Assembly (NCBI GenBank): GCA_963761975.1 | Contig: CAVXIR010000007.1 | Coordinates: 558,965-622,964, forward strand | Direction: 5' to 3' | From: Vicinamibacterales bacterium | Lineage (GTDB): Bacteria; Acidobacteriota; Vicinamibacteria; Vicinamibacterales; JAMQPK01 | DNA: 64,000 nt | Shown: positions 30,113-56,439 of the stretch, in pieces | Numbering within the stretch: position 1 is the stretch's first letter | Layout: every line of letters begins with the position of its first letter | Program-made: the position numbers and the translations under genes | The notes under the pieces: generated by a model | What the model was told of the DNA's origin: nothing | Database searches by the model: none | The model's input: the letters and a program-made list of their open reading frames with translations, nothing else

Positions 30113-30340
30113 TTAATCTCGCGGCACTCTCGTCAGTACGCCGTCAGAGTTGCGCCAGATCGTAACGTTGTGGTCGTCGGCCCATTTTTTGGCGATCTGA
30201 AGCGCCGCCGAGAGCTCGCTCAACGTGAGCTGGTGCGGGTGCGGCACCACGCTCAGCAGATGGCGACCACCTTCGGTCGTTATCAGTACATCTCCATTGG
30301 ACGGAGCATCTCCGTTAGATGGAGAGTCGGGCATTTGCAC
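30113..30340 (-). CDS. hypothetical small protein (75 aa)
   Basis: ORF only. Contains the internal duplication SNGDAPSNGD. Weak RBS. Confidence 0.3.
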   Translation of the reverse strand: MQMPDSPSNGDAPSNGDVLITTEGGRHLLSVVPHPHQLTLSELSAALQIAKKWADDHNVTIWRNSDGVLTRVPRD

Positions 30341-30395
30341 AACCTGGGTACTCTATCAAGATCGATGCCTGTCCCACCTTGGGGCGGCGGCTACG

Positions 30396-30602
30396 CTAGA
30401 GATTCGTCAGTTCGGCCGGCAAAATAGCCTGGCAGCTGGGGCAGGCCACCACACGTCCGCGGCGGGGCAGGGTGGATGTGAAGTTTACCTGGTCACGAAG
30501 GAGCCGGACGGCTTTCAGCGTCGACACGATCTGTCCACAGTGTGGGCACTTTACCGGCGTTTCCAGCCGGTAAACCGCATCGAACTTCTCGGGCTGGGCC
30601 AT
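30396..30602 (-). CDS. small zinc-ribbon protein (CPHC...CPSC)
   Basis: Two CxxC pairs 35 residues apart. I prefer the start at MAQPEKF. Confidence 0.45.
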   Translation of the reverse strand: MAQPEKFDAVYRLETPVKCPHCGQIVSTLKAVRLLRDQVNFTSTLPRRGRVVACPSCQAILPAELTNL

Positions 30603-30686
30603 CCTGGATCTTTTCGGCTGATACAAACACTTCCTTTACTTAGAGTTAGCGACTCAGGCAAAATAAATGAAACCCTTGGTGATTGA

Positions 30687-33230: not shown

Positions 33231-33236
33231 CCCTGC
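33212..33236. repeat. ACGTAG-type hairpin ACGTAG-C-GCAGGGC-TTTA-GCCCTGC spanning the DUF1592 stop codon
   Basis: Read directly. Confidence 0.7.
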
Positions 33237-33248
33237 CAAGGAGACCGC

Positions 33249-34586: not shown

Positions 34587-35842
34587 AGAAGTACGTCATC
34601 GCCGCGTTGCTCGTCGCCGCACCGGTCTACGCGCAGGATCCGCCGTCCGGTGACGGGTCCACGCCTTTGCACTGGGCCGCCTATCGGGACGACCTGGCAA
34701 AAGCCGATCAACTGATTCGCGGCGGCGCGAACGTGAACGCGGCGAACGATCTCGGCGTGACGCCGCTCTGGGCTGCCAGCATCAACGGCAGCGTGGCGCT
34801 CGTGACGCGTCTGCTCGAGGCCGGCGCCAATCCCAACGCTGCCCTCATGTCGGGGGAGACGCCGCTGATGGTCGCGTCGCGATCGGGCAAGACGGCCGCG
34901 GTCGAGACGCTCCTCGCGAAAAGTGCCAATCCCAATGCGCGCGGGGCGCGCGGTCAGACGGCGCTGATGTGGGCCGTCTCGCAGGGGCACGCAGACGTCG
35001 TCAAGCTGCTCGTCGCCGGCGGCGCGGATGTGCATGCGAAGTCCGACAGCTGGAGCCAGATGATGGCCGTGCCCCCGCACGGCCTCCCCGAGTACAACAG
35101 GATGATTCCGCATGGGGCCGACACGGCGCTCATGTTTGCGGCACGCAACGGCGACATCGCGTCGACGAAGGTTCTTGTCGAAGGCGGCGCGAATGTCGAC
35201 GACCAGGATGCCTGGGGAGTGAGCGCGACGACGCTGGCGGTGTTTTCGGGATCTGGTGAAGTTGCGCGTTATCTGCTCGAGAAGGGCGCCGACCCGAACA
35301 ACGACAAACCGGGTTTCACGGCCCTTCACTGCGCCATCATGCGCCGCGACGAACAGACCGTCGCAGCCCTCCTGGCGCGAGGCGCCAATCCCAATATCAC
35401 AGTGAAGGTCTGGACGCCGACGCGGCGAGCCTCGGACGATTACCATTTCATGCCGGCGCTCGTCGATGCGTCGCCATACTGGCTGGCGGCTCGATTCACC
35501 GAGCCTGGCATGATGCGCCTGCTCGCCAAACACGGCGCCGACACCAAAGTGGTCCACGAGTCCAACTACGTGCAAGGCGAAGGCTATCAGCGTCGGAAGG
35601 AACGAACGACGGCGCTGATGGCTGCGCTGGGCATGGGGGGCGGCGTGGCGTGGGTGCCGGTCGATCGCGCCAAGCGCGATGCGCTCATCCTCGAGACGGT
35701 GACGTTGGCCGCCGAGCTGGGTGCCGATGTGAACGTCGCCAGCATTGATGGCCGCACGGCGCTCGATTCCGCACGCGCGCAGAAGCATGAGGCCGTAGTG
35801 GCGTTCCTCGAAGGCCGCGGCGCGGTCGGCAAATCGCGTTAG
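34583..35842 (+). CDS. ankyrin-repeat protein, secreted (419 aa)
   Basis: ATGA overlap with DUF1552. Signal peptide. Repeated TPLHWAA / G.TALMWA..GH...V..LL..GA(D/N) motifs. Confidence 0.85.
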   Translation: MKKYVIAALLVAAPVYAQDPPSGDGSTPLHWAAYRDDLAKADQLIRGGANVNAANDLGVTPLWAASINGSVALVTRLLEAGANPNAALMSGETPLMVASRSGKTAAVETLLAKSANPNARGARGQTALMWAVSQGHADVVKLLVAGGADVHAKSDSWSQMMAVPPHGLPEYNRMIPHGADTALMFAARNGDIASTKVLVEGGANVDDQDAWGVSATTLAVFSGSGEVARYLLEKGADPNNDKPGFTALHCAIMRRDEQTVAALLARGANPNITVKVWTPTRRASDDYHFMPALVDASPYWLAARFTEPGMMRLLAKHGADTKVVHESNYVQGEGYQRRKERTTALMAALGMGGGVAWVPVDRAKRDALILETVTLAAELGADVNVASIDGRTALDSARAQKHEAVVAFLEGRGAVGKSR

Positions 35843-35871
35843 ATCGCTCGCGGCTCAAGGGCTCTCAGACA

Positions 35872-35965
35872 GCATTGCCGTATTTTCGATTGGCAATTGC
35901 CAAATTCATTGGCGATTGGAAATTCCCAATCAATTCACAATCGTCAATTGAGAATGCGGCAATGC
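35872..35965. repeat. GCATTGCC...GGCAATGC palindromic element, copy a (94 bp)
   Basis: Termini GCATTGCCGTATT / AATGCGGCAATGC. The interior is made of CAATTG/GATTGG/CAATC motifs. Lies between convergent gene ends. Confidence 0.85.
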
Positions 35966-35966
35966 G

Positions 35967-36235
35967 TCATGTCCCCGCTTGATTCTCATTCCTCATGACC
36001 GCCCCCAGCCGCTGAACGGCGCGGTTCACGGCCATTCTCGCGCCGTCAGGCGTATTGAATCCAAACTGCTCGGCAATTTCAGCGACGCTCCATTGTGCTT
36101 CGACGCGTGCGATCACGAGCTCCCGCTCACGGGGCTTCAGCCGGCCCATGGCCGCGCGGTAGTGATCGTAGGTTTCATGCTCGAGCGCCTGATCAAGTGG
36201 CGACGGATCCTCAGACGGGAATTCCGGCGGCAGCT
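35967..36235 (-). pseudogene. ECF sigma factor relic; only the linker plus region 4 remain
   Basis: ..YRAAMGRLKPRERELVIARVEAQWSVAEIAEQFGFNTPDGARMAVNRAVQRL is a sigma70 region 4 HTH. No region 2 is present. Upstream it runs straight into the GTTCGTG array. Confidence 0.75.
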
Positions 36236-36236
36236 C

Positions 36237-36355
36237 TTCGTGAAGTTCGTGGAGGTTCGTGGGTTCGTGGGGTTCGTGGGTTCGTGAGTTCGTGGGTTCG
36301 TAGGTTCGTGGAGTTCGTGGTTCGTGAGTTCGTCGGTTTGTAGTTCGTGGTTCGA
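36237..36355. repeat. tandem array of GTTCGTG units (reverse orientation of CACGAAC), about 14 units
   Basis: Read directly. It forms the left arm of an inverted pair with 36936-37075. Confidence 0.9.
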
Positions 36356-36464
36356 ATTCCGCGTACTTCGCGACGAGGTGGTACGGCAAAAACTGCCTCG
36401 GCGGGCGACTTTGGTTGATTTCGCTGGCGTTGTCGCTGGCCCATACATTGCTCCTTCCCTTCGT

Positions 36465-36893
36465 ATGCGTCGCTATCAAGATTTCAAGGCGTGGCAGCTC
36501 GCACGCGACCTGCACCGGAAAGTCTTTGCGATGACGTCAACGGGCCCAGCGTCTCGCGACTTCAAGTTTCGCGACAATATGCGTGACGCGGCTGATTCGG
36601 CGCAGCGGAATTTTCCCGAAGGATTCGGCCGGTTTGCGCCGGCCGACTTTGCACACTTCTTGGATCACTCCCGCGCGTCTCTGCTGGAGGTGAAGAACGC
36701 AATCGGCGAGGGATTCGAGCGTAAGTATTTTCGCAACGACGAGTGCGTCGAGGCAGACTCACTAGCGGCTCGCGCGTTGAAAGCGCTGTCTGGGCTGCAG
36801 CAGTATCTGCGATCTCCGGAGGCGAAACGAAACGCCGACCGCGCCCGCGCGCAACACATTGCGCGACGAACCCAACGAAACTCACACACCTGA
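36465..36893 (+). CDS. four-helix-bundle protein ('23S rRNA intervening-sequence protein' family, 142 aa)
   Basis: MRRYQDFKAWQLARDLHRKVFAMT...RDNMRDAADSAQRNFPEGFGR....F..FL..S..SL.EV...I is the pattern I recognise for this family. Confidence 0.85.
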   Translation: MRRYQDFKAWQLARDLHRKVFAMTSTGPASRDFKFRDNMRDAADSAQRNFPEGFGRFAPADFAHFLDHSRASLLEVKNAIGEGFERKYFRNDECVEADSLAARALKALSGLQQYLRSPEAKRNADRARAQHIARRTQRNSHT

Positions 36894-36935
36894 TAGCGAC
36901 CGAACGAACCCGCTGATCCCCCAAGGGCCGACTTG

Positions 36936-37075
36936 CCACGAACCTACGAACCCCACGAACCCCACGAACCTACGAACTGTACGAACCCCACGAACCCCAC
37001 GAAGCTACGAACTGCACGAACTCCACGAACCCCCGAACTCCACGAACTCTCACGAACCCACGAAAGCCGGTTTCA
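36936..37075. repeat. tandem array of CACGAACC units, about 16 units; right arm of the inverted pair
   Basis: Read directly. Degenerate units begin already at about 36862, inside the last codons of the four-helix-bundle gene. Confidence 0.9.
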
Positions 37076-37133
37076 ACTCGTCGGGCGACGGATTCAACAG
37101 ATCTTCCGGGACCGGCCACGACGGTTCAGCCAT

Positions 37134-37229
37134 TCAGTACGCCGCAATCGCGCCGCCGTAGCCGGATCCGACCACGATGACGTCATAACGGGAGCGCAAT
37201 TCGCCGATGGGCGTTGATAGGCTCGGCAT
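37134..37229 (-). pseudogene. N-terminal stump (31 codons) of an FAD-dependent oxidoreductase (Rossmann GxGxxG)
   Basis: MPSLSTPIGELRSRYDVIVVGSGYGGAIAAY then a stop. The rest of the gene is missing and the array follows about 60 nt downstream. Confidence 0.55.
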
Positions 37230-37348
37230 CTCAGGTCACGGTTGGGCGAAAACGGCCGATAAGCTATCGTGTGTATGTGTAGAAGGCAGATTCTTCCACT
37301 AACCGAAGACCCCTGCCAGCGGAAAGTAATCCACTCACGTCAACGACC

Positions 37349-38227
37349 GTGAACACCGAATCGAACAGCTCCATCGACGCTTCGCTGGTCGAACGCCTCT
37401 ATCGCCGGGCGAAAGCCAAGCGCTGGCATTTGTCGCACGACGCTTTTGCCGCGGTGCTCGAGACGAGTTGCGCCAAGGCTTTTGCGAATGGGGATCCCGA
37501 ATCGGATGAGCTGTCCCGTTACCTCGAGTCGCTGCATCTCGAGGACCTGGCGCTGGCGTGTGCCTGCGCACTCGGCGATGCCGTTGCGTGGGATCATTTT
37601 GTGATGGAGATGCGTCCAGGCCTGTATCGCGCCGCCGACGCCCTCGATCCGTCGGGCGGCGCCCGCGAGCTGGCCGATTCGCTGTACGGCGATCTCTACG
37701 GTGTCGACAATCGCGGCGAAGCGCGACAGTCGCTGTTGCGGTATTTCCACGGCCGCAGCAGTCTCGCCACGTGGCTTCGTGCCGTGCTGGCGCAGCGACA
37801 CGTCGACCGCATGCGTGTGACGCGACGTGTTGAGCCGCTGCCCGAGGAGATCGCTGCCAGTACACCATTCGAAGCCGCCGACGCCGAATGCCCCAAGTAC
37901 GTCGAGTTTCTCCGTACCGCGCTCGAGCACGCGCTGACGCATCTCGAACCACGCGATCGGCTGCGATTGGGTCTCTACTACGCTCAGCAGCTCACGCTCG
38001 CCGAAACCGGCAGGCTCCTGAAGGAACACGAGGCGACAGCGTCGCGGCAGCTGGCACGGACGCGTAAAGCCGTTCGGAATGAGGTGGAAAAGAAGCTCCG
38101 CGCCGGCGGGTTGAGCGAGGCTGAGGTCGCCCGGTGTTTCGAGTGCGCCGCCAAAGACGCCGGGACGATGAATCTCGAAGAGATGTTGGGCTCGCGCAAG
38201 GAATTCGCGCAGGATCGTTCTGTATGA
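37349..38227 (+). CDS. sigma-70 family (ECF-like) RNA polymerase sigma factor (292 aa, GTG start)
   Basis: Region 2-like ..SLATWLRAVLAQRHVD.. and region 4 ..LEPRDRLRLGLYYAQQLTLAETGRLLKEHEATASRQLARTRKAVR. Confidence 0.8.
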   Translation: MNTESNSSIDASLVERLYRRAKAKRWHLSHDAFAAVLETSCAKAFANGDPESDELSRYLESLHLEDLALACACALGDAVAWDHFVMEMRPGLYRAADALDPSGGARELADSLYGDLYGVDNRGEARQSLLRYFHGRSSLATWLRAVLAQRHVDRMRVTRRVEPLPEEIAASTPFEAADAECPKYVEFLRTALEHALTHLEPRDRLRLGLYYAQQLTLAETGRLLKEHEATASRQLARTRKAVRNEVEKKLRAGGLSEAEVARCFECAAKDAGTMNLEEMLGSRKEFAQDRSV

Positions 38228-39273
38228 AGAAGGAACCAATGGCGGACGACCACGATCGTGAGATGTGGCTTGGCCCGATGTTGCGGCAGGGGCCGACGGC
38301 GGTGTCCGATCCGTGTATCGACCCCGAGTCGCTCGCCGCCTGGGCGGAAGGCAAGCTGGACACGACACAGGCTGGTGCCGTTGAGCTGCACGCGTCGAAC
38401 TGCCAGCGCTGTATGGCGATGTTGGCGTCGATGGCACGTACCACTCCGGCCGAGGAAGAACGGAAGGCATCGTGGAGTAGAGCGGTGTTGATGCGATGGC
38501 TGGTCCCGTTGACAGCGGCGGCCACGGCTATCGCGATCTGGGTGCTGGTGCCGGATCGGCCGGTTACACAGGTACCCTCGGCGACTGTGCCGCACGAAAG
38601 CGCCCCGCAGGAAAGCGCGCGGCAGGATCAGTCGCGTCGACTAGCCAAGGAACCCGACGTTCCGGCGCCGAGGCCGGTGCCGGAGGCCGGCAAGCAGGAT
38701 CAATCCGCGCAGGATCAATTCGCACCCGTGCTGCCGGTCGAGCGAGATGCCGCGATCCAGCGAGAGCCGCCCCCAAGCGCCCTCGAGAACGCAGGACGTC
38801 GTGCTGAGGTGAAGGAGGAGCGTCAGTCACTCGATGCACTCAGAGAGCAAAGCCTTTCAACGTTGAGGGATCGAGCGGCGGCGGCGCCATCGCAAGCTCC
38901 CGCGGCACAGCTGCCCTCCGCTCCGGCCCCAGCGGGGAACGAAACGTTTGCCGCTCCAATGGTTCAGCAGCAGCTGGCGGCGCCAGCCGCTCCGTCGAGC
39001 GAGTCGACGTCGCCGACCGATCCGCTCATCCGATGGAGGGTCGTTGGCTGGGTTGCCGTTGAGCGATCGATTGACGGCGGCAACACCTGGATTAAGACGA
39101 CCACGCCTCCTGGTGTGATCCCGAATGGCACGCCCATGCTCTGGATCATGTCTGTTCGAGCCGTGGACAACCTGCGGGGAACGATTTTAACTTCAGACCG
39201 TAGAGAGTTTTACACGACCAACGGCGGTATCTCCTGGGAGCGCGTGCAAGAAAATTCAGTAGCTCCGTTCTAA
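38224..39273 (+). CDS. anti-sigma factor (zf-HC2, single TM) with Pro/Ala-rich linker and C-terminal Asp-box (BNR-like) domain
   Basis: ATGA overlap with the sigma gene. H-x3-C-x2-C (HASNCQRC). TM segment WLVPLTAAATAIAIWVLV. SIDGGNTW and TTNGGISW Asp-box motifs. Confidence 0.75.
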   Translation: MKKEPMADDHDREMWLGPMLRQGPTAVSDPCIDPESLAAWAEGKLDTTQAGAVELHASNCQRCMAMLASMARTTPAEEERKASWSRAVLMRWLVPLTAAATAIAIWVLVPDRPVTQVPSATVPHESAPQESARQDQSRRLAKEPDVPAPRPVPEAGKQDQSAQDQFAPVLPVERDAAIQREPPPSALENAGRRAEVKEERQSLDALREQSLSTLRDRAAAAPSQAPAAQLPSAPAPAGNETFAAPMVQQQLAAPAAPSSESTSPTDPLIRWRVVGWVAVERSIDGGNTWIKTTTPPGVIPNGTPMLWIMSVRAVDNLRGTILTSDRREFYTTNGGISWERVQENSVAPF

Positions 39274-39312
39274 GAACAGTGGGGAAGGACCCCACGTTCA
39301 AAGGAGTTTCGA

Positions 39313-40788
39313 ATGCTTGCACGGCTCGGTTTTCTCGCTTCTGTCTGTGTTGCGCTGACTGCCTTTTCAATTCCGGTTAATCCGACCATAGAGCCAGTGC
39401 AGGCCGCGCCCGCAGCCGGACAGGGCTCAACCACGCTGGACGATCAGGTCGATCTGAGCGTCACCGTCTACAACTCGGATATCGCGCTCGTCCGCGATGT
39501 GCGGAACCTCGACCTTCCGCGCGGCACGTTCAATCTGAGTTTCATGGACATCGCGGCGACCGTGAATCCCGCGACCGTGCTGTTCCGATCGCTCAGCGAG
39601 CCGTCGCGTGTGAGCGTCCTCGAGCAGAATTACGAGTACGACCTCCTCGAGCCCGAGAAGCTCTTGCGCAAGTACGTCGGCCGCGACGTGACGCTCGTAC
39701 GCAGCCGGCAGGTGGACGGCACGACACAGCAGGAAGAAGTCACGGCGCACCTGCTGAGTTACAACACTCAGCCGGTCTGGAGAATCGGCAAGGAAATCGT
39801 GACCGGATTGCACGCCGATCACATTCGCTTTCCCGAGTTGCCCGACACCCTCTACAGCCGCCCGACGCTGATTTGGACGCTGGAGAACGGCGGCGCGTCA
39901 CGCCACCGCGTCGAGGCGAAATACCTGGCTGGCAAGCTGTCATGGAATGCCGATTACGTGCTGACGGTGGCGCGCGACGACAAGGCGGGCGACGTCGATG
40001 GCTGGGTGACGCTGACCAACGGCAGCGGCACGGCGTTTCGCAACGCGAAGCTGCAACTCGTGGCGGGCGATCTGAATCGCGTGCGCCAGAACATCGACAG
40101 ACTGATGATGGCCGACCAAGCCATGGGTCGTCGAGAGATGGCCGCTGCGCCGATGGCGCAGGAAGCGTTTTCCGAGTATCACCTCTACACGCTTGGCCGA
40201 AAGACGACGATCAACAACAACGAGACCAAGCAGGTCAGCATGCTGTCCGGGACCGGCTTCCCGGTTCACAAGCGGTATGTCGTCAACGGCAATCAGTTCT
40301 ACTATCACAACGCTGCGAGGCCCGGCGCGCCGATCAAAGACAACGTGGAAGTGTTCTATCAGTTCAAGAACGAAGAGAAGAGCGGCCTGGGCATGCCGAT
40401 GCCGGCCGGCACCGTCCGTGTGTATCAGTCCGATTCAAACGGCGGCGTGCAGTTTGTCGGTGAAGACCGCATCATGCACACGCCGAAGGACGAAACGCTG
40501 AACCTGAAGATCGGAAACGCGTTCGATGTGGTGTGCGAGCGCAATCAGGTCGACTTCGAAAAGATCGCCGCCAATGTCTACGAAATCGAGTACGCCATCA
40601 CGTTGCGCAACCGGAAGACCACGCCGATTACGGTCGAGGTGAACGAGCCCGTCGGCGCCGCGACCTGGCGCATGCTCCATGCGTCGCACAAATGGGTCAA
40701 AACGGCCGCATTCGCGGCGCAGTTCACGGTTCCGGTGGATGCAGGTGCGGAAGCGGTGCTGAAATTTCGGATTCGAGTGAACGGGTAG
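39313..40788 (+). CDS. DUF4139 domain protein, secreted (491 aa)
   Basis: Signal peptide. Pattern ..VTVYNSDIALVRD.R...L..G......D....V.P.T........YEYDL.. plus ..W.A.Y.L....D...D..GWVT..N.SG..F..A.L.LVAGD matches my memory of DUF4139. Confidence 0.75.
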   Translation: MLARLGFLASVCVALTAFSIPVNPTIEPVQAAPAAGQGSTTLDDQVDLSVTVYNSDIALVRDVRNLDLPRGTFNLSFMDIAATVNPATVLFRSLSEPSRVSVLEQNYEYDLLEPEKLLRKYVGRDVTLVRSRQVDGTTQQEEVTAHLLSYNTQPVWRIGKEIVTGLHADHIRFPELPDTLYSRPTLIWTLENGGASRHRVEAKYLAGKLSWNADYVLTVARDDKAGDVDGWVTLTNGSGTAFRNAKLQLVAGDLNRVRQNIDRLMMADQAMGRREMAAAPMAQEAFSEYHLYTLGRKTTINNNETKQVSMLSGTGFPVHKRYVVNGNQFYYHNAARPGAPIKDNVEVFYQFKNEEKSGLGMPMPAGTVRVYQSDSNGGVQFVGEDRIMHTPKDETLNLKIGNAFDVVCERNQVDFEKIAANVYEIEYAITLRNRKTTPITVEVNEPVGAATWRMLHASHKWVKTAAFAAQFTVPVDAGAEAVLKFRIRVNG

Positions 40789-40802
40789 GGTAAGTGTCGT
40801 GT

Positions 40803-40897
40803 GCATTGCCACATTGAGAATTGACGATTGCCGGACTAATTGGCGATTGAGAAATCGTCAATCAATGGACAATTGCCAATCGAAAATGTGGCAATGC
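40803..40897. repeat. GCATTGCC...GGCAATGC palindromic element, copy b (95 bp)
   Basis: Termini GCATTGCCACATT / AATGTGGCAATGC. Lies between convergent gene ends. Confidence 0.85.
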
Positions 40898-40910
40898 TGC
40901 CGACTCGGAA

Positions 40911-41969
40911 CTAGTGGCTCACGCTCGTCACATGTTCCTTAAGTAAGTCTCGCCCAAAGTCTCCATTGAAATCACGCCAGACGGAATGCACGTGATTGCC
41001 GTCGTTCTGCGTGTTGTCGAACTCGATCAGGAAGGTTGGCCCCTGCACGCGGTAGTAATGCTTCTTTCCCCGCTCGAACTCGCCGGCCCAGGCGAACGTC
41101 AGCTTGTCGAGCCCCGCTTTCTTGAGGGCCGCCATCCGGTCGGCGGCAATATCAGGTGCCATCACCGAGACGTAGGCGTCGACGACCCGCATCAGCATCT
41201 CGCGCTGCTTCGGTTGAAGATCCGTTGCGGCAATGCCCGTCGGGGTGAGCGGATTGACGGTGCCCTCGTTGCGCGTGACGATGTCGTTCGGCGCCGTCGC
41301 GTTGATCACGGCTTTTGCGCGCTGTGATTCGTCGAGCGCCATCACGAGCTCGCGGGCCGGATCTTCTTCGAAGCCGAGCACCCTCAAACCCTTCTTGGGG
41401 CCGTCCTTCACTTCTGCCGGGTTTGATCCGAAGAAGTGCGGTGCGGCTGAGACCATGTTGCCGCCGGTCACGGTGAAGTTGAGCGAAACGTGATGGCCTT
41501 CGACTTTCCATCCCCACGTTCCCTTTGCTGAAGGCGTGCCGAACACCCACACGTAATACTTCAGCGGGTTGCGCTCGAGCTTGCCGGGTTTTGAACCCGG
41601 CGGGTTCTCAATGAGGTTAAGGATGCTTTCAAGCTCCATGATGGCGGAGGCCGTCATATAGCCTTTTTGGCTGAGGCCCGCCTTCATCAGGTTATGCGCC
41701 GCCTGCCGCTGGGGCTCGGTCATCTTCTCAATGGTCAGGCCCACCCGCGGATGCATCTCGGTAGGAACGAAGCCGAAGCGCTCGCGCTCTTTGGCATTGT
41801 CGAACGCGAAGCTGGCGGTCTGCTTCTGTTCGGGGGCGAGTGTCGAAAGGAACTTGTTGGCCGCGTCGGCCATGTTCGCGGGGGACCGATCGGCGGCATA
41901 GGTTGCGGCGAAGTACGCCAGTACGCAGCCAAGCCACAGGGCAAACCGAGCTGAACGTAGTGCACGCAT
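40911..41969 (-). CDS. DUF3500 domain protein, secreted (352 aa)
   Basis: ..FLSTLAPEQK....F.F....R..F.F.P......G.....M...Q...A..L....LS..G; W.W...GHH.SLN.T and a terminal ..DFG.D.L..H are typical. Confidence 0.8.
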   Translation of the reverse strand: MRALRSARFALWLGCVLAYFAATYAADRSPANMADAANKFLSTLAPEQKQTASFAFDNAKERERFGFVPTEMHPRVGLTIEKMTEPQRQAAHNLMKAGLSQKGYMTASAIMELESILNLIENPPGSKPGKLERNPLKYYVWVFGTPSAKGTWGWKVEGHHVSLNFTVTGGNMVSAAPHFFGSNPAEVKDGPKKGLRVLGFEEDPARELVMALDESQRAKAVINATAPNDIVTRNEGTVNPLTPTGIAATDLQPKQREMLMRVVDAYVSVMAPDIAADRMAALKKAGLDKLTFAWAGEFERGKKHYYRVQGPTFLIEFDNTQNDGNHVHSVWRDFNGDFGRDLLKEHVTSVSH

Positions 41970-42048
41970 GGGAGAATCCTTTCGAACCACAAAGACACGA
42001 AGACACGAAGGATTTGTGCCGGGAAGAGTATCATAGCCCCAACTATTC

Positions 42049-43167
42049 ATGCCCCGAACCCTCTTTGTTTCTACGGTCCTTCTGGCGATCGGGCTTCCCG
42101 TCAGCTGGCTGGCGGCGCAGGAGTCGCGTGTGCCTTTTGTGTACGTATCGGGTTATCGGCCAGAGATCGCCATCTTTCGACTCGATACGGCGGGCGGCCG
42201 GCTGATCCCGGCCGGCAAGGCCACCAACGTTGGGCAGGAGCCGTCGTTTCTGGCCTTCGACCCGACGGCGAAATACCTGTTTGCCGTCAACGAGACCGAC
42301 CCGGGCCGTGTCCGTTCCTTCACAATCAATCAGGCGAGCGGCGGGTTGACGCCCATCAATGATGTGCCGTCGATGGGCAGCATCACCGCTCATCTCTCGA
42401 CTGACAAGACCGGCCGGTGGCTGCTGGTCGCCAATTACGGCGACACCAAACAGGGCACCATTGCGTCGATTCCGATCGGCCCTGACGGGCGGCTGAGCGA
42501 GGCGGTCGACACCCGGGAGTTTGGCCTGGGATCGATGGCGCATTACATCAGTTCCGATCCGGGCAACCGATTCGTGTTCGTCCCCCTGAAAGGGGGGCCG
42601 TCGGTCGCCCAGCTGGTGTTCGACCCGGCCACGGGCCGAATGAAACCGAACGTGCCGCCACAGGTGACGGCGGCACCGGGTGCGGGGCCTCGTCACCTCG
42701 ACTTTCATCCAAACGGTCGCTTTGCGTATGTCATCAACGAGCTCGATTTGACGATGGCGGCATTTGCCTACGACGCGAAGACGGGACTCTTGCGCGAGCT
42801 CCAGGTGCTTCCGACACTTCCGGCAGCCGCCGACAAGGTGGGCGCATCGGCTGCGGATGTCCACGTGCATCGCTCGGGACGATTTCTTTACGGCTCGAAC
42901 CGCGGCCACAACAGCATCGTCATCTTTCGCCTGGCCGACGACGGCCGCATGACCCTTGTCGGCCACGAGTCGCGCACCATACTCCGGCCGCGTAATTTCA
43001 CGATCGATCCCACCGGCACGTTGATGCTCGTCGCCAACCAGGATGGTGCGAGCGTCTCGATCTTCCGAATCGATCAGAACAAGGGAACATTGGAGCCGGT
43101 CGGGCAGCCGACGCCGGTCGGACAGAACCCTTCGTTCGTCGGGGTTGTGATGTTGGCGGGAAAATAG
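42049..43167 (+). CDS. lactonase-family 7-bladed beta-propeller (6-phosphogluconolactonase-like), secreted
   Basis: ..PSFLAFDP..KYLFAVNE.., GPRHLDFHPNGRFAYVINEL, HRSGRFLYGSNRGHNSIVIF and RNFTIDPTG..L.VANQD.. are hallmark repeats. Confidence 0.85.
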   Translation: MPRTLFVSTVLLAIGLPVSWLAAQESRVPFVYVSGYRPEIAIFRLDTAGGRLIPAGKATNVGQEPSFLAFDPTAKYLFAVNETDPGRVRSFTINQASGGLTPINDVPSMGSITAHLSTDKTGRWLLVANYGDTKQGTIASIPIGPDGRLSEAVDTREFGLGSMAHYISSDPGNRFVFVPLKGGPSVAQLVFDPATGRMKPNVPPQVTAAPGAGPRHLDFHPNGRFAYVINELDLTMAAFAYDAKTGLLRELQVLPTLPAAADKVGASAADVHVHRSGRFLYGSNRGHNSIVIFRLADDGRMTLVGHESRTILRPRNFTIDPTGTLMLVANQDGASVSIFRIDQNKGTLEPVGQPTPVGQNPSFVGVVMLAGK

Positions 43168-43169
43168 AG

Positions 43170-43221
43170 CTCGTGGGTTCGTTGGGTTCGTGAGGTTCGT
43201 AAGGTTCGTAAGGTTCGTCGG
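43170..43221. repeat. tandem array of GGTTCGT units, about 6 units
   Basis: Read directly, immediately after the lactonase stop. Confidence 0.85.
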
Positions 43222-43222
43222 T

Positions 43223-43247
43223 ACGTAGTGTCCGGCTTCAGCCGGAC
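43223..43247. repeat. ACGTAG-type hairpin ACGTAG-T-GTCCGGC-TTCA-GCCGGAC
   Basis: Read directly, 13 nt before the next start codon. Confidence 0.7.
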
Positions 43248-43259
43248 CGTGGAGGCGAC

Positions 43260-44210
43260 ATGCGGGTTCTGCTTTCGTTGTTGCTGCTGTTTCCGATTGT
43301 GATCTCCGCGCAAGAGCAACCGCGCGTCCTTTACTATCCGAAACCCCTCAACCGCGAATACAAGCCGCCGATGAAGCCGGTGACCCGGCTGGCAGACCTG
43401 AAGGCGAAGAACCAGGGCAAAACCACCTGGCGCGAGCCCGTTATCAATGACGGCAACTCGGTGTCGTTCATGGTGCAGGAACCGCCCGGCACCAAGTACG
43501 AACGCCGCATGTATCCGGATTCTGCGGGGTGGTTCATTGTCCTCGACGGACAAGTTCGGTTTGAAGTGGAGAAAGCCGACGGCACCTTCGAGATCATCAA
43601 TGCGACGAAGGGGTCGTATGTGTTCGTGCCCGAGCGCCTTCTGCATTCGATCGAGGTCATGGGCAACACGCCGGCGATTCGATACGAAGTCGCGTCGGGA
43701 CCGTCATCAACACCGGTCTACGAGAAGCGGCCGGCGCAGGCACCCAAGGGTGTCGAGTACATTCCGGTGACGTTGGGCACCGGGTTGAACCCGCTGGATG
43801 TGTACAACCAGGGAAACGGCGGCCAACCATGGCCGTACCACGTGAACGTGTACGAACTCGAGAAGCGGAACGCCACGAAGAAAGGGTTCACGCAGGAGGC
43901 GATGCGCGCCAACCGCGCGCGCGGCAATTTCATCTGCGGCTATCGTCCCACGGCATTTCCGACGGAGAAGGGCGATCGAGGTCACCTGCACACTGATACC
44001 GCCGAATCATGGATCGTCATGCTGGGCGAGTTGCGGTGGGTCTTCGAAGGCGACGAGAAGACCGCGATCATCGCGCAGCAGGGCGACATCATCTATGCCG
44101 TACCGGGCACGTTCCACTCGCCGCAGTTCTGGGGCAAGGAAGGTCTGAACTGCCGGCTGACCCAAAGCACCATGCCATCGCTGAACCATTTGTACGATGC
44201 GAAGAAGTAG
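43260..44210 (+). CDS. secreted bicupin-like hypothetical protein (316 aa)
   Basis: Signal peptide MRVLLSLLLLFPIVISAQ and two cupin-like G..(Y/I)V.VP....H segments. Confidence 0.55.
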   Translation: MRVLLSLLLLFPIVISAQEQPRVLYYPKPLNREYKPPMKPVTRLADLKAKNQGKTTWREPVINDGNSVSFMVQEPPGTKYERRMYPDSAGWFIVLDGQVRFEVEKADGTFEIINATKGSYVFVPERLLHSIEVMGNTPAIRYEVASGPSSTPVYEKRPAQAPKGVEYIPVTLGTGLNPLDVYNQGNGGQPWPYHVNVYELEKRNATKKGFTQEAMRANRARGNFICGYRPTAFPTEKGDRGHLHTDTAESWIVMLGELRWVFEGDEKTAIIAQQGDIIYAVPGTFHSPQFWGKEGLNCRLTQSTMPSLNHLYDAKK

Positions 44211-45261: not shown

Positions 45262-45846
45262 ATGCGCGCTCGAGCGATTGTCTTCCTGGGTTGCATCGTT
45301 GTCTGGGGCGGCGCCGCACATGCGCAGGCCGTGCCGCCGCGATTCGAGGTTGGCGGTGGGGGCGGTGTGCTGGCCGGGGGAGGCAGCAGTGACGGGTTCA
45401 TGATCTTCACGGTGGGCCCACGGTTGACCCTCAACGTCACTCCTCGCGACGGCCTGGAAATCGCCGCCGAGATCGTCGGACCGGTCGAAGGCAACGGGCT
45501 TTACGGCCTTTACGTCCTGCAGTACAAGCGCACCCTGACAGGCCGTGTGGCGAGTCAACGTTCCGTCTTCATGACGGCCGGAGCGGGTGGCACCTTCGAG
45601 TACGAGCGTAGCAGGGAATTTCGCGAGGAACGTCCTGACGGATCGGTGTTCGTCCAGCCACCATACACGCACGCATCAGTCGATGGGCCAATGTTCGTCG
45701 CGGTGGGCGTGGGCTTCGAGCGCGTGCTCGCGCGTTATGTTGCCACGCGAGGCGAGCTGCAGCTGGCCGCATTCCGATTCGGCAGTGTAGGGGTGAGAGG
45801 CACCTTTGGGGTCTCAATCCCGATCGGAGGCTATCGTGTCCGGTAG
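45262..45846 (+). CDS. putative outer-membrane beta-barrel protein (194 aa)
   Basis: Signal peptide ..GGAAHAQA, alternating strand pattern and a terminal aromatic-rich strand. Confidence 0.55.
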   Translation: MRARAIVFLGCIVVWGGAAHAQAVPPRFEVGGGGGVLAGGGSSDGFMIFTVGPRLTLNVTPRDGLEIAAEIVGPVEGNGLYGLYVLQYKRTLTGRVASQRSVFMTAGAGGTFEYERSREFREERPDGSVFVQPPYTHASVDGPMFVAVGVGFERVLARYVATRGELQLAAFRFGSVGVRGTFGVSIPIGGYRVR

Positions 45847-46456
45847 ACACTCACAGCTTCCGGTTATGGCGATCGCCGTGACCGCGCTCACGGCCATCGC
45901 GTGCCAAACAGGAGAGCCAGGCGCTCCGTACGTCATTCCGGGGCCGACGGGGCCAACGCCCGTATCGACGCGGATGCCTTACGTGTGGGATTCGCGCGAC
46001 GAGCTTTCCGTCTGGATCGACAGCAAAGTATCGCGGGGCCCCATCTCGATGACCGGTGACGGACCGGGCGCGGCCATCCGAATCGAGAGTGGGTCGCCGA
46101 CCTTTTCGCTCGAAAACGGCAGTTCCGTGCAATGGGTGCTCCGCGGACCCGATTTCGAACTGCCCGTCACAGGGGTGAGAGCAGTGAGCATCCGTTACAC
46201 GTGGGTGCCGGCCATCCGAAACTCGACCGTTCCCGTAGCCATGCCGGACATCAACGCGGGATTCGAGCTGCCGGAAGGTCGTGCCGGGCTTCTACAGGTG
46301 ACGCTCGGTTCCCCGATCGCACGGGAACCATCAGGGGAAATGATCCTGGAGGACAAGTTTACGAAACCGTTCGATGCACGTTATTTCTATCTGTACTCGG
46401 ATGGTGGAAATCGAGGAGTGCTGGAGATCGATTCGATCGCCCTCATTCGCGAGTAG
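45836..46456 (+). CDS. hypothetical lipoprotein (GTG start, lipobox LTAIAC)
   Basis: Overlaps the upstream gene by 11 nt. The start choice is uncertain (the ATG at 45866 is also possible). Confidence 0.5.
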   Translation: MSGRHSQLPVMAIAVTALTAIACQTGEPGAPYVIPGPTGPTPVSTRMPYVWDSRDELSVWIDSKVSRGPISMTGDGPGAAIRIESGSPTFSLENGSSVQWVLRGPDFELPVTGVRAVSIRYTWVPAIRNSTVPVAMPDINAGFELPEGRAGLLQVTLGSPIAREPSGEMILEDKFTKPFDARYFYLYSDGGNRGVLEIDSIALIRE

Positions 46457-46467
46457 TGGCAGGGCTA

Positions 46468-47047
46468 GAGCGTTTTCGGTATCTGTGTAGCCGCGGCCAG
46501 TCGTCGCAGCAGGGCACGCAGCCGGCGGTCGCGAACCAGCTCGACGAGGCGGGAAAATGCATCTTCGCGACCCATTCCGATTACGCGATGGGAGCGCCCT
46601 TCGCTCAGCTCCCAACGCTTCGTACGCGCTGCAGATGCATTTTCCGGTCACGGGAGTACGTCGCCTCGCTCGCGATGGTTCGCGACCGCCGCCTGCGTGC
46701 CCCGCCGCGGCGCAGTGGTGGTCGCCCGGCGCGACGTGTGAGAGCCGAGCGGCCACAGGCAAACGACGGGGTGGCCGTCCGTCGTGGGTGGGTGATGGCT
46801 GGCGGTCGATAGGTCACAGCCCGACGGCGTCAGTCCAAAAACAACGGCGGCGGCCACCTTCGCGGACGACCAACCCTGGTCGGCCGCGCCATGGCAGAGA
46901 GGGATATCGCCGCCGCGTTGTTTTTCCGGGCCCGGGGCCCCCAACGCGGCAGCCGCGTTGGGGTGGCCTGTGTCGACCGTGACCGCCAGCCATCACCCAC
47001 CCACGACGGACGACTCGCCGTTCGCCACACAGATACCGAAAACGCTC
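46468..47047. mobile_element. MITE-like non-autonomous element (580 bp) with perfect 21-bp TIRs and TA target duplication
   Basis: GAGCGTTTTCGGTATCTGTGT at 46468-46488 and its exact reverse complement at 47027-47047. TA at 46466-46467 and at 47048-49. No credible transposase ORF inside. Confidence 0.7.
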
Positions 47048-47145
47048 TAAAGCCCTGCGCTACCGGCGACTCGCCGTCCTGTCGTGTTGATTTGGATTTT
47101 CCTCTGCGGCTTGGCGTCTTTGCGTTGAGACACAGCGTGTCGAGA

Positions 47146-48480
47146 TCACACGGCGTCTGATAACGAAGTGAAGTTGAACTCGCGAATGCGCAGCGCCGGC
47201 ATGTGGCGACCGGCGGCAACGGCCTCCGAGCGCCCGATGTCTTCCAGCCGGTTCAGCATCAGCAGCGGGCTCTCGTTCCAGCGCAGATTCTTCAACGGGC
47301 GCGTCACCTTGCCTTTTTCGATGAGAAACGCGCCGTCGCGCGTCAGTCCCGTGAAGAGCACCGTCCGCGGCTCGAGCGAGCGGATGTAGAAGAAATGCGT
47401 CACGAGCACGCCGTGGTCGCATTCGGCAATCAGCTCGTCGGTGGTTTTCGTCCCACCCGTCAGCTTCAGACCGCCGCCGGAAAACACGGATGCACCGTTG
47501 TAGATATCGTCGCCTGTCGGCTGCGTACCCTGCTTCTGAGCCCAGAAGCGTGTGTACGACAGATTTCGCAACACACCCCTTTCAATCCACACCGTTCGGC
47601 GAATCGGCAGCCCCTCGACGTCGAAGGGCATACCCAGCAAGTCCGGGTCCGACGGATCCGTATAGAGCGTGACACGCTCGTCGCACACCTTCTCGCCGAT
47701 TCGAGTGCCGCCGCCGGATTTCGAAAATGCGCTGCGCCCTTCATCGGCGCTTCTTGCGTTCAGCGCATTCGACAGAAGGGGCACTAGGTCGTTCACCGCC
47801 TGAGGTTCGAGCACGGCCGTATAGGGCCGAGGGTCGATCGATTGCGGGTTCCGGCTCGCCTGGGCTTTTCGCGCGGCGACACGCCCGATCGCCACCGGAT
47901 CGACGGCACCCCAGTCGCGCGACCCGGTGCTGGCCCAGCCGCTGCCCGTCCCGTCCGGCGTTCTCGCCGTCATCGACAGCTGGGCATCGGTGGTCCGGTG
48001 ATAGGCGAACAACCCGGCGCTCGTCGCCACCGCCACCGAAATGGCGCGTGCTTCGAGGAATCCTGCGGAGAAGATTGGGCCGGCGCCCTGCACGGCGCGC
48101 TGGACAGCGCCGGCGCGGGCGACGGGGTTCAGGTTGGCGGTGTCCTCGAGGTAGGCGTTGACGGTGGCGTATTTCTGCGGCCCCAGCTCCGGCATCATCT
48201 CGGGATCGTCGGGCGACAGCTGCGCAAGTTGAGCGGCAAGCTCTACCGTACGCCTCAGGCTCGCCTGGTCGAGCACGTTGGTCGTCGCCGCTGCCCGCTT
48301 GCGCCCCACGGTCGCCGTGACGGTCACGGAGACGTCGGTGACGCCGCCCGATGTCGTGATGCTGGCGTCCGCGAAGCGCGTGTTGCCGGCCCACTCGCTC
48401 GTGATGTTCACGCGCGTCTGGTCGGCCTTGCTCAACGCCAGCACTCGATCGGCGAGCGCTCTAGCCTCTTCGCGCGTCAT
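47146..48480 (-). CDS. PmbA/TldE-family metalloprotease subunit (444 aa)
   Basis: Starts MTREEARALADRVLALSKADQTRVNITS... The ATG overlaps the reconstructed TldD stop (ATGA). Typical PmbA length. Confidence 0.85.
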   Translation of the reverse strand: MTREEARALADRVLALSKADQTRVNITSEWAGNTRFADASITTSGGVTDVSVTVTATVGRKRAAATTNVLDQASLRRTVELAAQLAQLSPDDPEMMPELGPQKYATVNAYLEDTANLNPVARAGAVQRAVQGAGPIFSAGFLEARAISVAVATSAGLFAYHRTTDAQLSMTARTPDGTGSGWASTGSRDWGAVDPVAIGRVAARKAQASRNPQSIDPRPYTAVLEPQAVNDLVPLLSNALNARSADEGRSAFSKSGGGTRIGEKVCDERVTLYTDPSDPDLLGMPFDVEGLPIRRTVWIERGVLRNLSYTRFWAQKQGTQPTGDDIYNGASVFSGGGLKLTGGTKTTDELIAECDHGVLVTHFFYIRSLEPRTVLFTGLTRDGAFLIEKGKVTRPLKNLRWNESPLLMLNRLEDIGRSEAVAAGRHMPALRIREFNFTSLSDAV

Positions 48481-50097
48481 GATTTCCGCGCCGTGTTCAG
48501 AATGGTGACGTTGCGAAACCGGCTCGGGGGGCATCCATGGCTCACAGAGCTTGACTGTGACGGCTCGCCTTTGCCGTCGTTGAACGACCCACCCAGCCAG
48601 TACCGATGACTTGCCGCCGATCATGTCGAGCGCGTTCCAGAACACCGGGGTGTTGCTCTGATAGGCGACGTCACGCAGCATGCCCGTGATTTTCCCGTTG
48701 CGCACTTCGTAGTACGCCTGGCCCGAGAACTGGAAGTTATAACGCTGGTTGTCGATCGACCATGATCCGCGGTTCTTGATTACGATGCCACGATCGGTGG
48801 CCGCGACGATGTCGTCGAGCGAGATGTCGCGCTCGCCAGGCAACAGCGAGATGTTCGGCATGCGCTGAAACTGCACGGCGTTCCACGATTCGGCAAACGA
48901 GCAGCCATGCGACCGCCGTACGCCGGTGAGATGCTCGATCCACTTCGCCTGCTCGCGGGTCGTCTGGTAATCCTTGAAGATACCCTTTTCGATAATCAGC
49001 CACTGGTCCGCCGGAACGCCTTCGTCGTCCCAGGCAACGCGCGAGAGCGATCCTTCCTGCGTGCGGTCGGCTTGCACGTTCATGAACTCGGGGCCATAGC
49101 GCAGCTTGCCGATCGTCTTGTCTGGCGGCGCGACAAAGCTGGTGCCTGCATAGTTGGCTTCCTGGCCCACCGCGCGATCGAGCTCGGTTGGATGGCCAAT
49201 GGACTCGTGAATGGTCAGCCACAGGTTCGTCGGGTCGAGAATCAGATCGTATTGACCGGCTTCGACGCTCTTGGCGGTCAGCTTTTCGGCCGCAATCGAC
49301 GCCCACCGCTCGGCGTTACCGGGAATGTCGAGCGATTCGACGTATTCCCACCCTTCTCCCCGCGGCGCGGTTTCGTGTTCGTAGGTTTGAAAATCTCCCG
49401 GCGCCGTCGCGGTTGCACTGAAGTTGGGGCCGACGCGGATAAACGTCTGCGTCACGTTCGTGCCCTGCGACGTCACAAGCGTCTTCACCTCGCGCAGAAG
49501 TTGAAGACCGGACGACACGAAGCGGACGTTCCGCACTTTGAGAGCCGCCTCGTTCGCCTTCAGCAGCAGAGCGATCTTGTCCTCGAGAGGAACCTCGATG
49601 GGATCGCGACGCACAGGGGTTATCCACGTGCCCGTCACCGGTGTTGCAGGCGCGAGCTCGACGGGATGCCGCTGCACGGCGCGCGCGGCTCGCGAGAGCG
49701 CGACCGCCTCCTGTGCCGCTTTCTGCACACCGGCGCGCGTCATCACGCTTGTCGCCGCAAATCCCCAGCACCCGTTCACCAGCGCGCGGATGCCGAGACC
49801 GTAGGATTCCTCGTCGGCAACCGAGCTCACCTGGCGCTCGCGCGTCTGTATCAGCTGCCGTCGATAGCGGCCCACCCGTGCATCGGCGTATGACGCCCCA
49901 GCGCTGCGCGCCGCGTTCAGCGCTTCGTTGGCGAGCTCGATCACGAACGGATCGCCACTCGGTGCTACCAGCGTTTGCCTGCCCGCCGCAGCCTCGGCGA
50001 AGGCGGGTGCAGAGCCAGCATGGAGCCTGTTGGTCAGAAGAGCTGCCGCTGTCGCAGCTGTTTGGCCAATAAAATCACGTCTGGTCGGGTTCGACAT
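48477..50097 (-). CDS. TldD-family metalloprotease subunit with Tat signal, carrying a 1-nt insertion between about 48575 and 48607
   Basis: MSNPTRRDFIGQTAATAAALL Tat signal and HESIGHPTELDR zinc-site-like motif. The conserved C-terminus GSFNDGKGEPSQSSSVSHGCPPSRFRNVTILNTARKS-stop is readable only in the adjacent frame. Confidence 0.85.
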
Positions 50098-50536: not shown

Positions 50537-50550
50537 CGCTACCGAGCGCT

Positions 50551-50676
50551 GGGTGCGCTAGGTGCGATGGGTGCGTCAGGTGCGATGGGTGCGTCAGGTG
50601 CGTCGGGTGCGTTAGGTGCGTTAGGTGCGTCAGGTGCGTCGGGTGCGTTAGGTGCGTTAGGTGCGTCAGGTGCGTA
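50551..50676. repeat. direct tandem array, 14 units of the 9-nt GGTGCGTNA
   Basis: Read directly. 126 nt long with strict 9-nt phase. Confidence 0.92.
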
Positions 50677-50733
50677 AGCGAGCGATGACGAGCGGGGGCG
50701 GGTGCCTGTGGGGGCTCCGCGACCCATAAAGGC

Positions 50734-50800
50734 GCGAGCGGCGCGGGGCAATGGGGCCCCGCAAGCGAGCGCCGAGGAGCGGGTGTTGGGGCCCCGCGAC
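50734..50800. repeat. 67-nt GC-rich structured repeat, copy 2 (REP-like)
   Basis: 64 of 67 nt are identical to 7625-7691. Confidence 0.85.
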
Positions 50801-50805
50801 AAATA

Positions 50806-56323: not shown

Positions 56324-56425
56324 GCATTGCCGCATTTTCAATTGACAACTGCCATATTGATTGACGATTCACACTTGGTCAGTCGCCAATCAATTAGAAA
56401 TTGTCAATTGAAAATGTGGCAATGC
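56324..56425. repeat. GCATTGCC...GGCAATGC palindromic element, copy c (102 bp)
   Basis: Termini GCATTGCCGCATTTTCAATTGACAA / TTGTCAATTGAAAATGTGGCAATGC. Lies between convergent gene ends. Confidence 0.85.
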
Positions 56426-56439
56426 ATGAAGGCCTTCGT

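Follow-up and report, generated by a model that had tools for sequence, protein, structure and literature searches.

Hairpin Units in the Window

We analyzed a stretch of DNA from a Vicinamibacterales bacterium (GenBank assembly GCA_963761975.1, contig CAVXIR010000007.1, positions 558,965 to 622,964 of the forward strand; 64,000 nucleotides in all, hereafter the window), which carries a set of short hairpins with a GTAG-containing 5' head. These hairpins are real and their nature is clear: they belong to a GTAG-tagged family of repetitive extragenic palindromes (REPs) of Vicinamibacterales, whose cognate REP-associated tyrosine transposases (RAYTs) are encoded in related genomes. A unit of this family is ~27-33 nt long. 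Its head, (GTA)CGTAG, is single-stranded and is separated by a 0-2 nt spacer from a perfect, G+C-rich stem (7-9 bp), which is closed by a TTYA loop; one sub-family has a longer loop of 8-9 nt. The window, which had been chosen independently of this pattern, contains seven units, or eight if the weak site F is counted. Apart from site F, their energies when folded as DNA are -8 to -12 kcal/mol. Their neighbor genes are ordinary and mutually unrelated (prfC/ABC-F; DUF1592/DUF1552; lactonase/cupin; an unassigned open reading frame [ORF]/TldD-PmbA-like; HupE).

The focal unit, site D (43221-43251, plus strand), reads GTACGTAG-T-GTCCGGC-TTCA-GCCGGAC-CGTG (-9 kcal/mol as DNA) and is an exact match to the master copy of the family, GTACGTAGTGTCCGGCTTYAGCCGGAC. 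It is located between the stop codon of a lactonase gene (43167) and the start codon of a cupin gene (43260), 12 nt ahead of this ATG, and is directly adjoined by a tandem array at 43171-43218. An exact-protein look-up of the cupin protein gave no record. Site C (33210-33236, plus strand) reads GTACGTAG-C-GCAGGGC-TTTA-GCCCTGC and overlaps the end of a DUF1592-family gene, which encodes a Planctomycete-type DUF1592/PSD protein. The last six codons and the stop codon of this gene come from the unit (GTA CGT AGC GCA GGG CTT TAG, encoding VRSAGL and the stop), with the TAG at 33228-33230. The 3' end of site C is followed after 12 nt by the ATG of the DUF1552 gene at 33249, and GGAG is present between unit and ATG at both site C and site D.

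Two further units face each other downstream of prfC and form a head-to-head dimer whose ACGTAG heads are 10 nt apart. Site B- (25652-25684, minus strand) reads ACGTAG-GCCGGGTCT-TGTTCTTTT-AGACCCGGC on that strand (-10.7 kcal/mol) and contains a perfect hairpin at 25652-25678. Its partner, site B+ (25695-25726, plus strand; ACGTAG-GGCGGGTCC-TGCTCTGT-GGACCCGCC), represents the long-loop sub-family and ends 13 nt before the ATG (25740) of an ABC-F ATPase gene. We also considered whether site B could be an unrelated pair of hairpins, which was ruled out: its long-loop type recurs with the same head in three other loci (L100, L002, and L034).

Site A (22295-22326; CTGGTAG-G-GCGCAAC-TTCA-GTTGCGC-TACCAG, -12.3 kcal/mol) has a near-copy in another locus (L103). 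The heads of sites A, E, and F are able to pair with a 3' CTAC, and site A therefore reads as a unit on both strands. Site F (58585-58610, plus strand; GCGTAG-T-GTCC-CTAT-GGAC-TACG) is just upstream of a HupE-family gene. It is weak or degenerate, with a core stem of 4 bp and -4.5 kcal/mol; the unit resembles the start of site D, and head and tail pair with each other.

Site E is a minus-strand unit that has been split by an insertion. Its head half (47050-47064; GGTAG-C-GCAGGGC-TT) is 82 nt downstream of the stop codon of a co-oriented TldD/PmbA-like peptidase gene (47146-50097, minus strand), and its tail half (46453-46467) reads TA-GCCCTGC-CACTAC; on the plus strand, the GTAG of this tail (46453-46456) includes the TAG stop codon of the gene at 45806-46456. 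Between the two halves lies a MITE-like element (MITE, miniature transposable element with inverted repeats; 46468-47047, 580 bp), with 21-nt terminal inverted repeats (TIRs; GAGCGTTTTCGGTATCTGTGT), internal inverted repeats and a TA duplication. This element is separate from the REP family and is inserted exactly in the TTTA loop of the unit. After in silico excision of 46468-47047 and one TA, the minus strand reads GGTAGCGCAGGGCTTTAGCCCTGCCACTAC and is the same as site C over 22 nt. Copies of the element were sought in the other loci analyzed, including the loops of other units, and none was found. Some insertion sequences are reported to target REP loops; the insertion in unit E may have been targeted or a matter of chance.

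An original prediction from this DNA had listed six hairpin sites, all of which are present, and had seen that one of them spans a stop codon inside the DUF1592/DUF1552 operon, as site C does. Several details needed revision. Its spacing of 13-14 nt before the next start codon was roughly right (12 nt at C and D, 13 nt at B+). The fifth hairpin, split by the MITE, is a genuine member, but in the form of a minus-strand copy matching site C, and the weaker candidate at 58587-58608 is present but weak, as described above. The inverted partner B- had been missed, and the heads of A and F, listed as flanks, are paired. It had also assigned a different stem to each member. D copies a widespread master sequence, and C and E share one stem and thus do not covary with each other.

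Enrichment, Structure, and Covariation

The window contains 53 perfect hairpins with a stem of at least 7 bp and a loop of 3-9 nt, four of which have ACGTAG near the 5' arm. Cases in which a perfect stem of >=7 bp starts 0-3 nt after ACGTAG were expected 0.06 times (maximum 1) from 100 dinucleotide-preserving shuffles and were observed four times. With GTAG alone before such a stem, six cases were observed versus 0.38 expected in the same shuffles.

A covariance model was built solely from units in other genomes and run on the window with filters off. It recovered site D (43220-43251, 50.4 bits, E = 2e-14), site C (33209-33240, 40.8 bits, E = 2.5e-11), site B+ (25692-25729, 17.8 bits, E = 6.5e-4), site F (58585-58610, 15.1 bits, E = 0.005), and site A (22298-22324, 15.1 bits, E = 0.005), with no other notable match. 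On its own, site B- scored 6.2 bits, which is not significant, because the model expects a 4-nt loop. A model scan of the kind proposed together with the original prediction was therefore positive, with five of the window sites returned at E <=0.005. No match to Rfam 15 was found at gathering thresholds anywhere in the window.

To examine the pairing, we took CGTAG and a TTYA loop, at a fixed distance from each other, as the sole anchors and demanded no pairing, which yielded 198 unique sequences. All seven stem positions were Watson-Crick pairs in 170 of them, representing 28 stem types. For the alignment, 148 units were taken out of 191 with at least 5/7 Watson-Crick pairs; 98.7% of its cells were paired, a value inflated by the >=5/7 pre-filter, compared with 14-45% when the partners were slid. 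At five of the seven pairs both sides had changed (117 cells), and the covariation score was reached by none of 500 shuffles. G-U pairs were found in only 4 of 1036 cells, which fits a hairpin in single-stranded DNA better than an RNA hairpin. In the model alignment CGTAG is invariant by construction; RAYT-flanking units, which were found without requiring CGTAG, have GTAG or GTGG.

The covarying stems had been put forward as the classical signature of a functional structure. The covariation is real, but it reflects REP sub-families, a known property. Complementary variation of the stems is what sub-families of GTAG REPs normally show (PMC3733652); here it tracks RAYT clades, and it provides no independent evidence for a functional RNA.

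Distribution and Genomic Organization

To analyze the distribution of the family, one genome per species was scanned with the pattern GTACGTAGNGNNNGGCTTNAGCCNNNC, in which the head, the loop, and the outer stem are fixed and three stem positions are free in each arm. Matches were detected in at least 120 stretches, and among the matches listed nearly all were labeled as metagenome-assembled genomes (MAGs) of Vicinamibacterales or other Acidobacteriota. Of 134 pattern matches listed, the exact site D sequence (GTACGTAGTGTCCGGCTT[C/T]AGCCGGAC) accounted for 81, and the three free stem pairs were all Watson-Crick in 120. Compensated stem variants included GCCCGG/CCGGGC, GGCCGG/CCGGCC, GCAGGG/CCCTGC, and GCCGGG/CCCGGC. 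The 27-nt master sequence, with its extended GTACGTAG head and fixed TTYA loop, is identical in dozens of species-level Vicinamibacterales genomes. The flanking DNA is unrelated from copy to copy, and a weak CGTG tail alone is conserved after the stem. The idea that the unit carries its own Shine-Dalgarno sequence was not supported, as nothing is conserved past this tail.

Via the DUF1552 protein we reached a 178-kb metagenome contig in ENA (L001) that matches the window at 99.8% identity across 21 kb; it represents the same organism and thus provides no comparative signal. Several pattern matches (L017, L030, L051, L069, and L109; also L005, L014, L064, and L065) are in MAGs labeled Bifidobacterium breve, Bifidobacteriaceae, Gemmatimonadales, Solirubrobacteraceae, or Acidimicrobiia. 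The GC content of these contigs is 64-70%, matching that of the Acidobacteriota loci (0.646 +/- 0.023), and the Bifidobacterium-labeled ones in particular look like mis-binned contigs and not true hosts.

In 0.9 Mb of pattern-selected loci we found 281 units, with TTCA loops in 127 and TTTA loops in 88. Singletons are common. Among neighbors within 60 nt, we directly observed 23 tail-to-tail doublets (mostly 4-12 nt apart), 22 head-to-head doublets (mostly 11-34 nt apart), and 26 direct tandem pairs, and one locus (L046) has four tandem copies. Based on heuristic gene calls, 177 of 221 strict units (80%) are outside called genes, compared with ~13% of the DNA that is non-coding; the gene upstream is co-oriented with the unit in 117 cases versus 52, and 16 of the 80 units with a co-oriented downstream gene are 6-20 nt from its start. 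The predicted positional bias was observed in these loci.

One orthologous junction lacking the unit was also observed. In locus L095, the DUF1592/DUF1552 junction is 76% identical to that of the window, the unit is absent, and the C-terminus of the DUF1592-family protein is different. Such a pattern would be expected of an insertion.

RAYT Enzymes Flanked by the Units

Using E. coli RayT as a probe, we identified an ORF in another genome (locus L013) exactly between pattern matches. Its protein matches Pfam Y1_Tnp, scores 103.7 bits on the NCBIfam equivalog REP_Tyr_transpos (NF047646, cutoff 80), and has E. coli TnpA-REP (4ER8) as its best PDB match. The IS200 model (NF033573, cutoff 55) gave 24.3 and 38.2 bits for the two RAYTs tested, both below cutoff. 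Although Vicinamibacterales RAYTs share only ~20-26% identity with E. coli RayT, residues H59 and H61 (the HUH motif), the catalytic Y115, N119, and P120 of the latter are invariant in eight sequences from all clades. The Vicinamibacterales proteins carry the signatures RY[IV]..NP and WQ.

At the L013 locus, two direct units lie 5' of the RAYT gene and two inverted units lie 3' of it, with their heads outward. In 23 of 25 related loci inspected, the RAYT gene has like units on both sides or, in two of the 23 whose contigs are cut through the gene, on the one side present. A metagenome scan revealed 11 further RAYT loci, nine of which have flanking GTAG-GGGCCGGC-TTYA-GCCGGCCC units. In seven of these nine the units are on both sides; the contigs of the other two (L127 and L130) are cut through the gene and show units on the one side present. 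A more divergent RAYT locus carries the GGGCCGCC stem variant. In addition, 203 homologs were found in databases, and GT[AG]G units are present on both sides in all eight loci inspected on longer contigs, with the stem type following the clade. The short contigs that carry most of the recovered RAYT loci may reflect assembly breaks at unit clusters.

A clade of 170-aa RAYTs (P0072, P0105, and P0094) is flanked by GTAG-T-GTCCGGC or GTCCGCC units, that is, the type of site D, and five further loci of this clade also have RAYT-flanking units. The GGGCCGGC, GGGCCGCC, and GTCCGGC stem types go with different RAYT clades, and a change of clade was observed to come with a change of stem type. In the 170-aa clade, the RAYT occupies a conserved chromosomal position, two loci (L137 and L142) being 82% identical through the neighboring genes. 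The REPtron system, that is, a RAYT gene together with its own flanking units, therefore exists in the lineage, seen in related genomes rather than in the window's own genome. This agrees with the first option named in the original prediction, a REP-like element. Its call to look for a RAYT-like gene held up as well: such genes were found beside like units in related genomes, with none among the window ORFs of at least 80 aa.

A RAYT of another Acidobacteriota MAG (L107:6950-7850; 114 bits on REP_Tyr_transpos) is flanked by a longer palindrome, GTGGCCTAYCCTTTGC...GCAAAGGGTAGGMCAC, and not by GTAG units. It may be of the TIR-flanked kind described for Acidobacteria.

Proposed Mechanism and Alternative Explanations

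Very probably, then, the hairpins are REPs of the GTAG-tagged superfamily in Vicinamibacterales, non-autonomous and most likely mobilized in trans by a RAYT. The enzymology is most likely that established by experiments on E. coli and Stenotrophomonas maltophilia. In E. coli, binding of the REP's GTAG head is base-specific, and cleavage at CT requires this head (PMC3479197). In the S. maltophilia system, whose palindromes are perfect, cleavage is lost when the head is mutated and is impaired by a mismatch in the stem (PMC8266576). Binding and cleavage of the cognate single-stranded REP have been demonstrated for E. coli, S. maltophilia, and Marinomonas enzymes (PMC3479197; PMC8266576).

By analogy, the Vicinamibacterales units would act in trans as substrates of RAYT/TnpA-REP, an HUH Y1 enzyme, which would bind the hairpin folded in single-stranded DNA; the GTAG head would then direct cleavage, and units would be copied or moved. 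For a RAYT of the 170-aa clade (e.g., P0072), a candidate single-stranded substrate would be GTACGTAGTGTCCGGCTTCAGCCGGAC. Each sub-family would be matched to its own RAYT clade, and perfect palindromes alone would stay substrates. If a perfect stem is needed for cleavage, stems should change mainly by paired substitutions, and changes would persist mainly when both arms change together. As side effects, operon-internal units would be transcribed and could supply stop codons or C-terminal residues, as at site C, and a stable hairpin would be placed 12-13 nt before a start codon. Such secondary effects of individual copies on neighbor genes are plausible and are visible at site C.

Several points weigh against this interpretation. 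No RAYT was found among window ORFs of at least 80 aa when they were searched by phmmer with the RAYTs of E. coli, L013, and L107, and no RAYT clade was found for the sub-families of C/E (GCAGGGC), A, or long-loop B. The contigs of all eight RAYT homologs looked up are from samples other than that of the window (ERZ25039586). Because the loci were chosen by the pattern itself, bias affects both the copy numbers and how far the master sequence dominates, and the gene calls behind the positional statistics came from a heuristic, GC3-based score (GC3, G+C at third codon positions). Finally, L095 is the sole empty orthologous site compared, and at 76% identity it may reflect divergence instead of insertion.

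It is quite unlikely that the hairpins are primarily functional RNAs (processing sites, mRNA stabilizers, or translation modulators) selected by the host at each locus, with their nature as DNA repeats secondary. The genes beside one copy are unrelated to those beside the next, the L095 junction lacks the unit, the units are found on both strands as well as in inverted dimers and tandem clusters (up to four copies), G-U pairs are very scarce, and RAYT genes are flanked by units whose type is matched to the clade; taken together, these features make a locus-specific RNA unlikely as the primary explanation, and no Rfam match was found in the window. Some features would nevertheless be expected of such an RNA, including the location of most units just 3' of a co-oriented gene, the fraction of units close to a downstream start, the position of C, D, and B+ inside co-directional gene pairs (12-13 nt before an ATG, with GGAG between), and the conservation of the master sequence over many species-level MAGs; many GTAG REPs have also been suggested to be transcribed (PMC3733652). 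The shared master sequence and the frequent placement 6-20 nt before start codons also allow a reading in which the family is not simply selfish or domesticated DNA: the transcribed hairpin would serve the host lineage as a general between-cistron expression module, distributed by RAYT. Such a module may, for example, shield the 5' end of the downstream mRNA or provide spacing for translational coupling. We consider this reading doubtful.

Intrinsic (Rho-independent) terminators or attenuators sharing a flank by chance would also be G+C-rich stem-loops at gene ends, with energies like the -8 to -12 kcal/mol obtained here for DNA. Yet no unit has a T-rich tail (the stems are followed by CGTGGAGG, CAAGGAGA, or GTCCAAGA), and no unit is among the terminator-like sites in 25000-44000, where 15 such sites were found against a shuffle expectation of 15.8. 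Several units are also 12-13 nt before the next start codon within an operon, and a conserved 5' GTACGTAG head with identical copies in many genomes is not a trait of terminators, which makes this explanation highly improbable. An origin of the units as ends or relics of insertion sequences of the IS200/IS605 type, or of MITEs bounded by TIRs, is just as hard to credit: the units are ~30 nt long with unrelated DNA on either side, they lack surrounding terminal inverted repeats or target duplications, and the RAYT of the 170-aa clade stays at a conserved chromosomal position (L137/L142). A head followed by a hairpin does resemble the guide tetranucleotide and subterminal hairpin of IS200/IS605 ends (PMC3479197), and the associated enzymes match Pfam Y1_Tnp, but these enzymes score above the cutoff of the RAYT equivalog model and below that of the IS200 model.

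Other Repeats and Features of the Window

Many intergenic tandem arrays with a period of 7-9 nt are present in the window on either strand, sometimes as facing pairs between genes. They are of the types GGTTCGTG, GGTTCTG, and GGTGCGTTA, with up to ~18 copies, and are located at 450-626, 1860-1976, 6253-6306, 10158-10271, 11638-11792, 22574-22769, 23136-23315, 36237-36354, 36936-37064, 43171-43218 (the array next to site D), 50546-50675, and 63839-63920. Similar arrays were observed beside units and RAYT genes in other genomes (e.g., L135, L048, and L063). We take these arrays to resemble the short tandemly repeated (STRR) sequences of cyanobacteria.

A third repeat family consists of an intergenic, relatively AT-rich palindromic element of ~95 nt (GCATTGCCACATTTTCAATTGACAATTGCC...GGCAATTGTCAATTGAAAATGYGGCAATGC) at 35870-35965, 40802-40897, and 56324-56426, which forms a long hairpin (-27.5 kcal/mol, z = -5.9). 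A 74-nt repeat at 7621-7694 and 50730-50803 (copies 93% identical) contains the hairpin GCGGGGC-RATGGG-GCCCCGC. The regions 1924-2201 and 6253-6531 share 75% identity over 284 nt, each extending from a CGAACC-type tandem array into the adjacent gene end, and could represent a duplicated gene end or a shared 3' region. The segment 14585-14903 is 92% identical over 319 nt to part of a different species-level MAG (L049:5261-5575), far above the usual level between these genomes. An ORF of 138 aa, whose cupin match is weak and below threshold, overlaps this segment, which could be recently transferred or unusually conserved. No sigma-70-type promoter-like site was found in 25000-44000 (19 kb; shuffle expectation 3.5 +/- 1.8), and the lineage may use different promoter signals. 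The overall GC skew of the window is ~0.01.

Comparison with Known REP/RAYT Systems

The GTAG-tagged REP superfamily comprises 24 families with stems of 6-13 bp and sub-families that have alternative complementary stem residues (Di Nocera et al. 2013, PMC3733652). According to the same survey, its members form head-head, tail-tail, and head-tail dimers and are mostly downstream of genes, their termini often provide TAG stop codons, and RAYT genes are flanked by their own repeat type. Hosts of GTAG REPs were reported in Proteobacteria, Cyanobacteria, Chloroflexi, and the Planctomycetes-Verrucomicrobia-Chlamydiae (PVC) group, and Acidobacteria were given only TIR-flanked tyrosine transposases (PMC3733652) or class 3 proteins that are atypical and have structures with a CnGA foot (Quentin et al. 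2018, PMC6006769). A canonical REP/RAYT system is now added for Vicinamibacterales, an abundant and largely uncultured soil order, in whose genomes REP units account for numerous small hairpins between genes, as well as for stop codons and modified 3' ends of genes. The match between unit type and RAYT clade could serve as a lineage marker, and RAYT clades that each have their own stem type are natural enzyme-substrate pairs for the recognition of perfect palindromes by HUH Y1 enzymes.

The closest resemblance is to the SMAG/GTAG-6 to GTAG-9 REPs of S. maltophilia. These, too, have GTAG at the 5' end, followed by a perfect palindrome (7-9 bp, G+C-rich) with a short loop, occur as several complementary-stem sub-families in one genome, and form singletons, inverted dimers, and clusters; the RAYT genes of its REPtron (TnpA-Sm) are likewise flanked by their own unit type. 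Unlike this gammaproteobacterial system, the units described here are found in Acidobacteriota, have a head extended to (GTA)CGTAG and a conserved 4-nt TTYA loop in place of a 3-nt loop (with an 8-nt loop in one sub-family), and share one master sequence among many species-level genomes of an order. The S. maltophilia enzymes have been characterized biochemically, the Vicinamibacterales RAYTs by sequence.

As in the E. coli REP/bacterial interspersed mosaic element (BIME) system with RayT (YafM, 4ER8), the GTAG head is at the foot of an extragenic palindrome, inverted dimers occur, the RAYT (single-copy in E. coli) is flanked by REPs, and the HUH motif and the Tyr are retained. REPs from E. 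coli are imperfectly palindromic and contain a bulge essential for binding (PMC3479197), in contrast to the perfect units of Vicinamibacterales. The Pseudomonas REPIN-RAYT system (GTAG-1) is similar in its inverted doublets and clusters and in having a RAYT at a conserved position with its own REPs flanking. It differs in the unpaired dinucleotides between head and stem and the conserved 3-bp motif at the other end (PMC3733652), and, unlike in Pseudomonas, singletons are common in Vicinamibacterales and tail-to-tail and head-to-head doublets occur in similar numbers.

Within the same phylum, the TIR-flanked tyrosine transposases (TIRYT) and class 3 TnpA-Y1 proteins of Koribacter and Solibacter also combine Y1 HUH proteins with repeated structured DNA, of which Solibacter usitatus has ~600 copies (PMC6006769; PMC3733652). 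These systems have long TIRs or atypical CnGA-footed structures and a Y....Q motif (PMC6006769). Membership of the Vicinamibacterales proteins in class 3 TnpA-Y1 was considered and rejected, as they have RY[IV]..NP and WQ and their units have a GT[AG]G foot. Judging from these motifs, the Vicinamibacterales RAYTs carry class 2 signatures and are flanked by canonical GT[AG]G hairpins.

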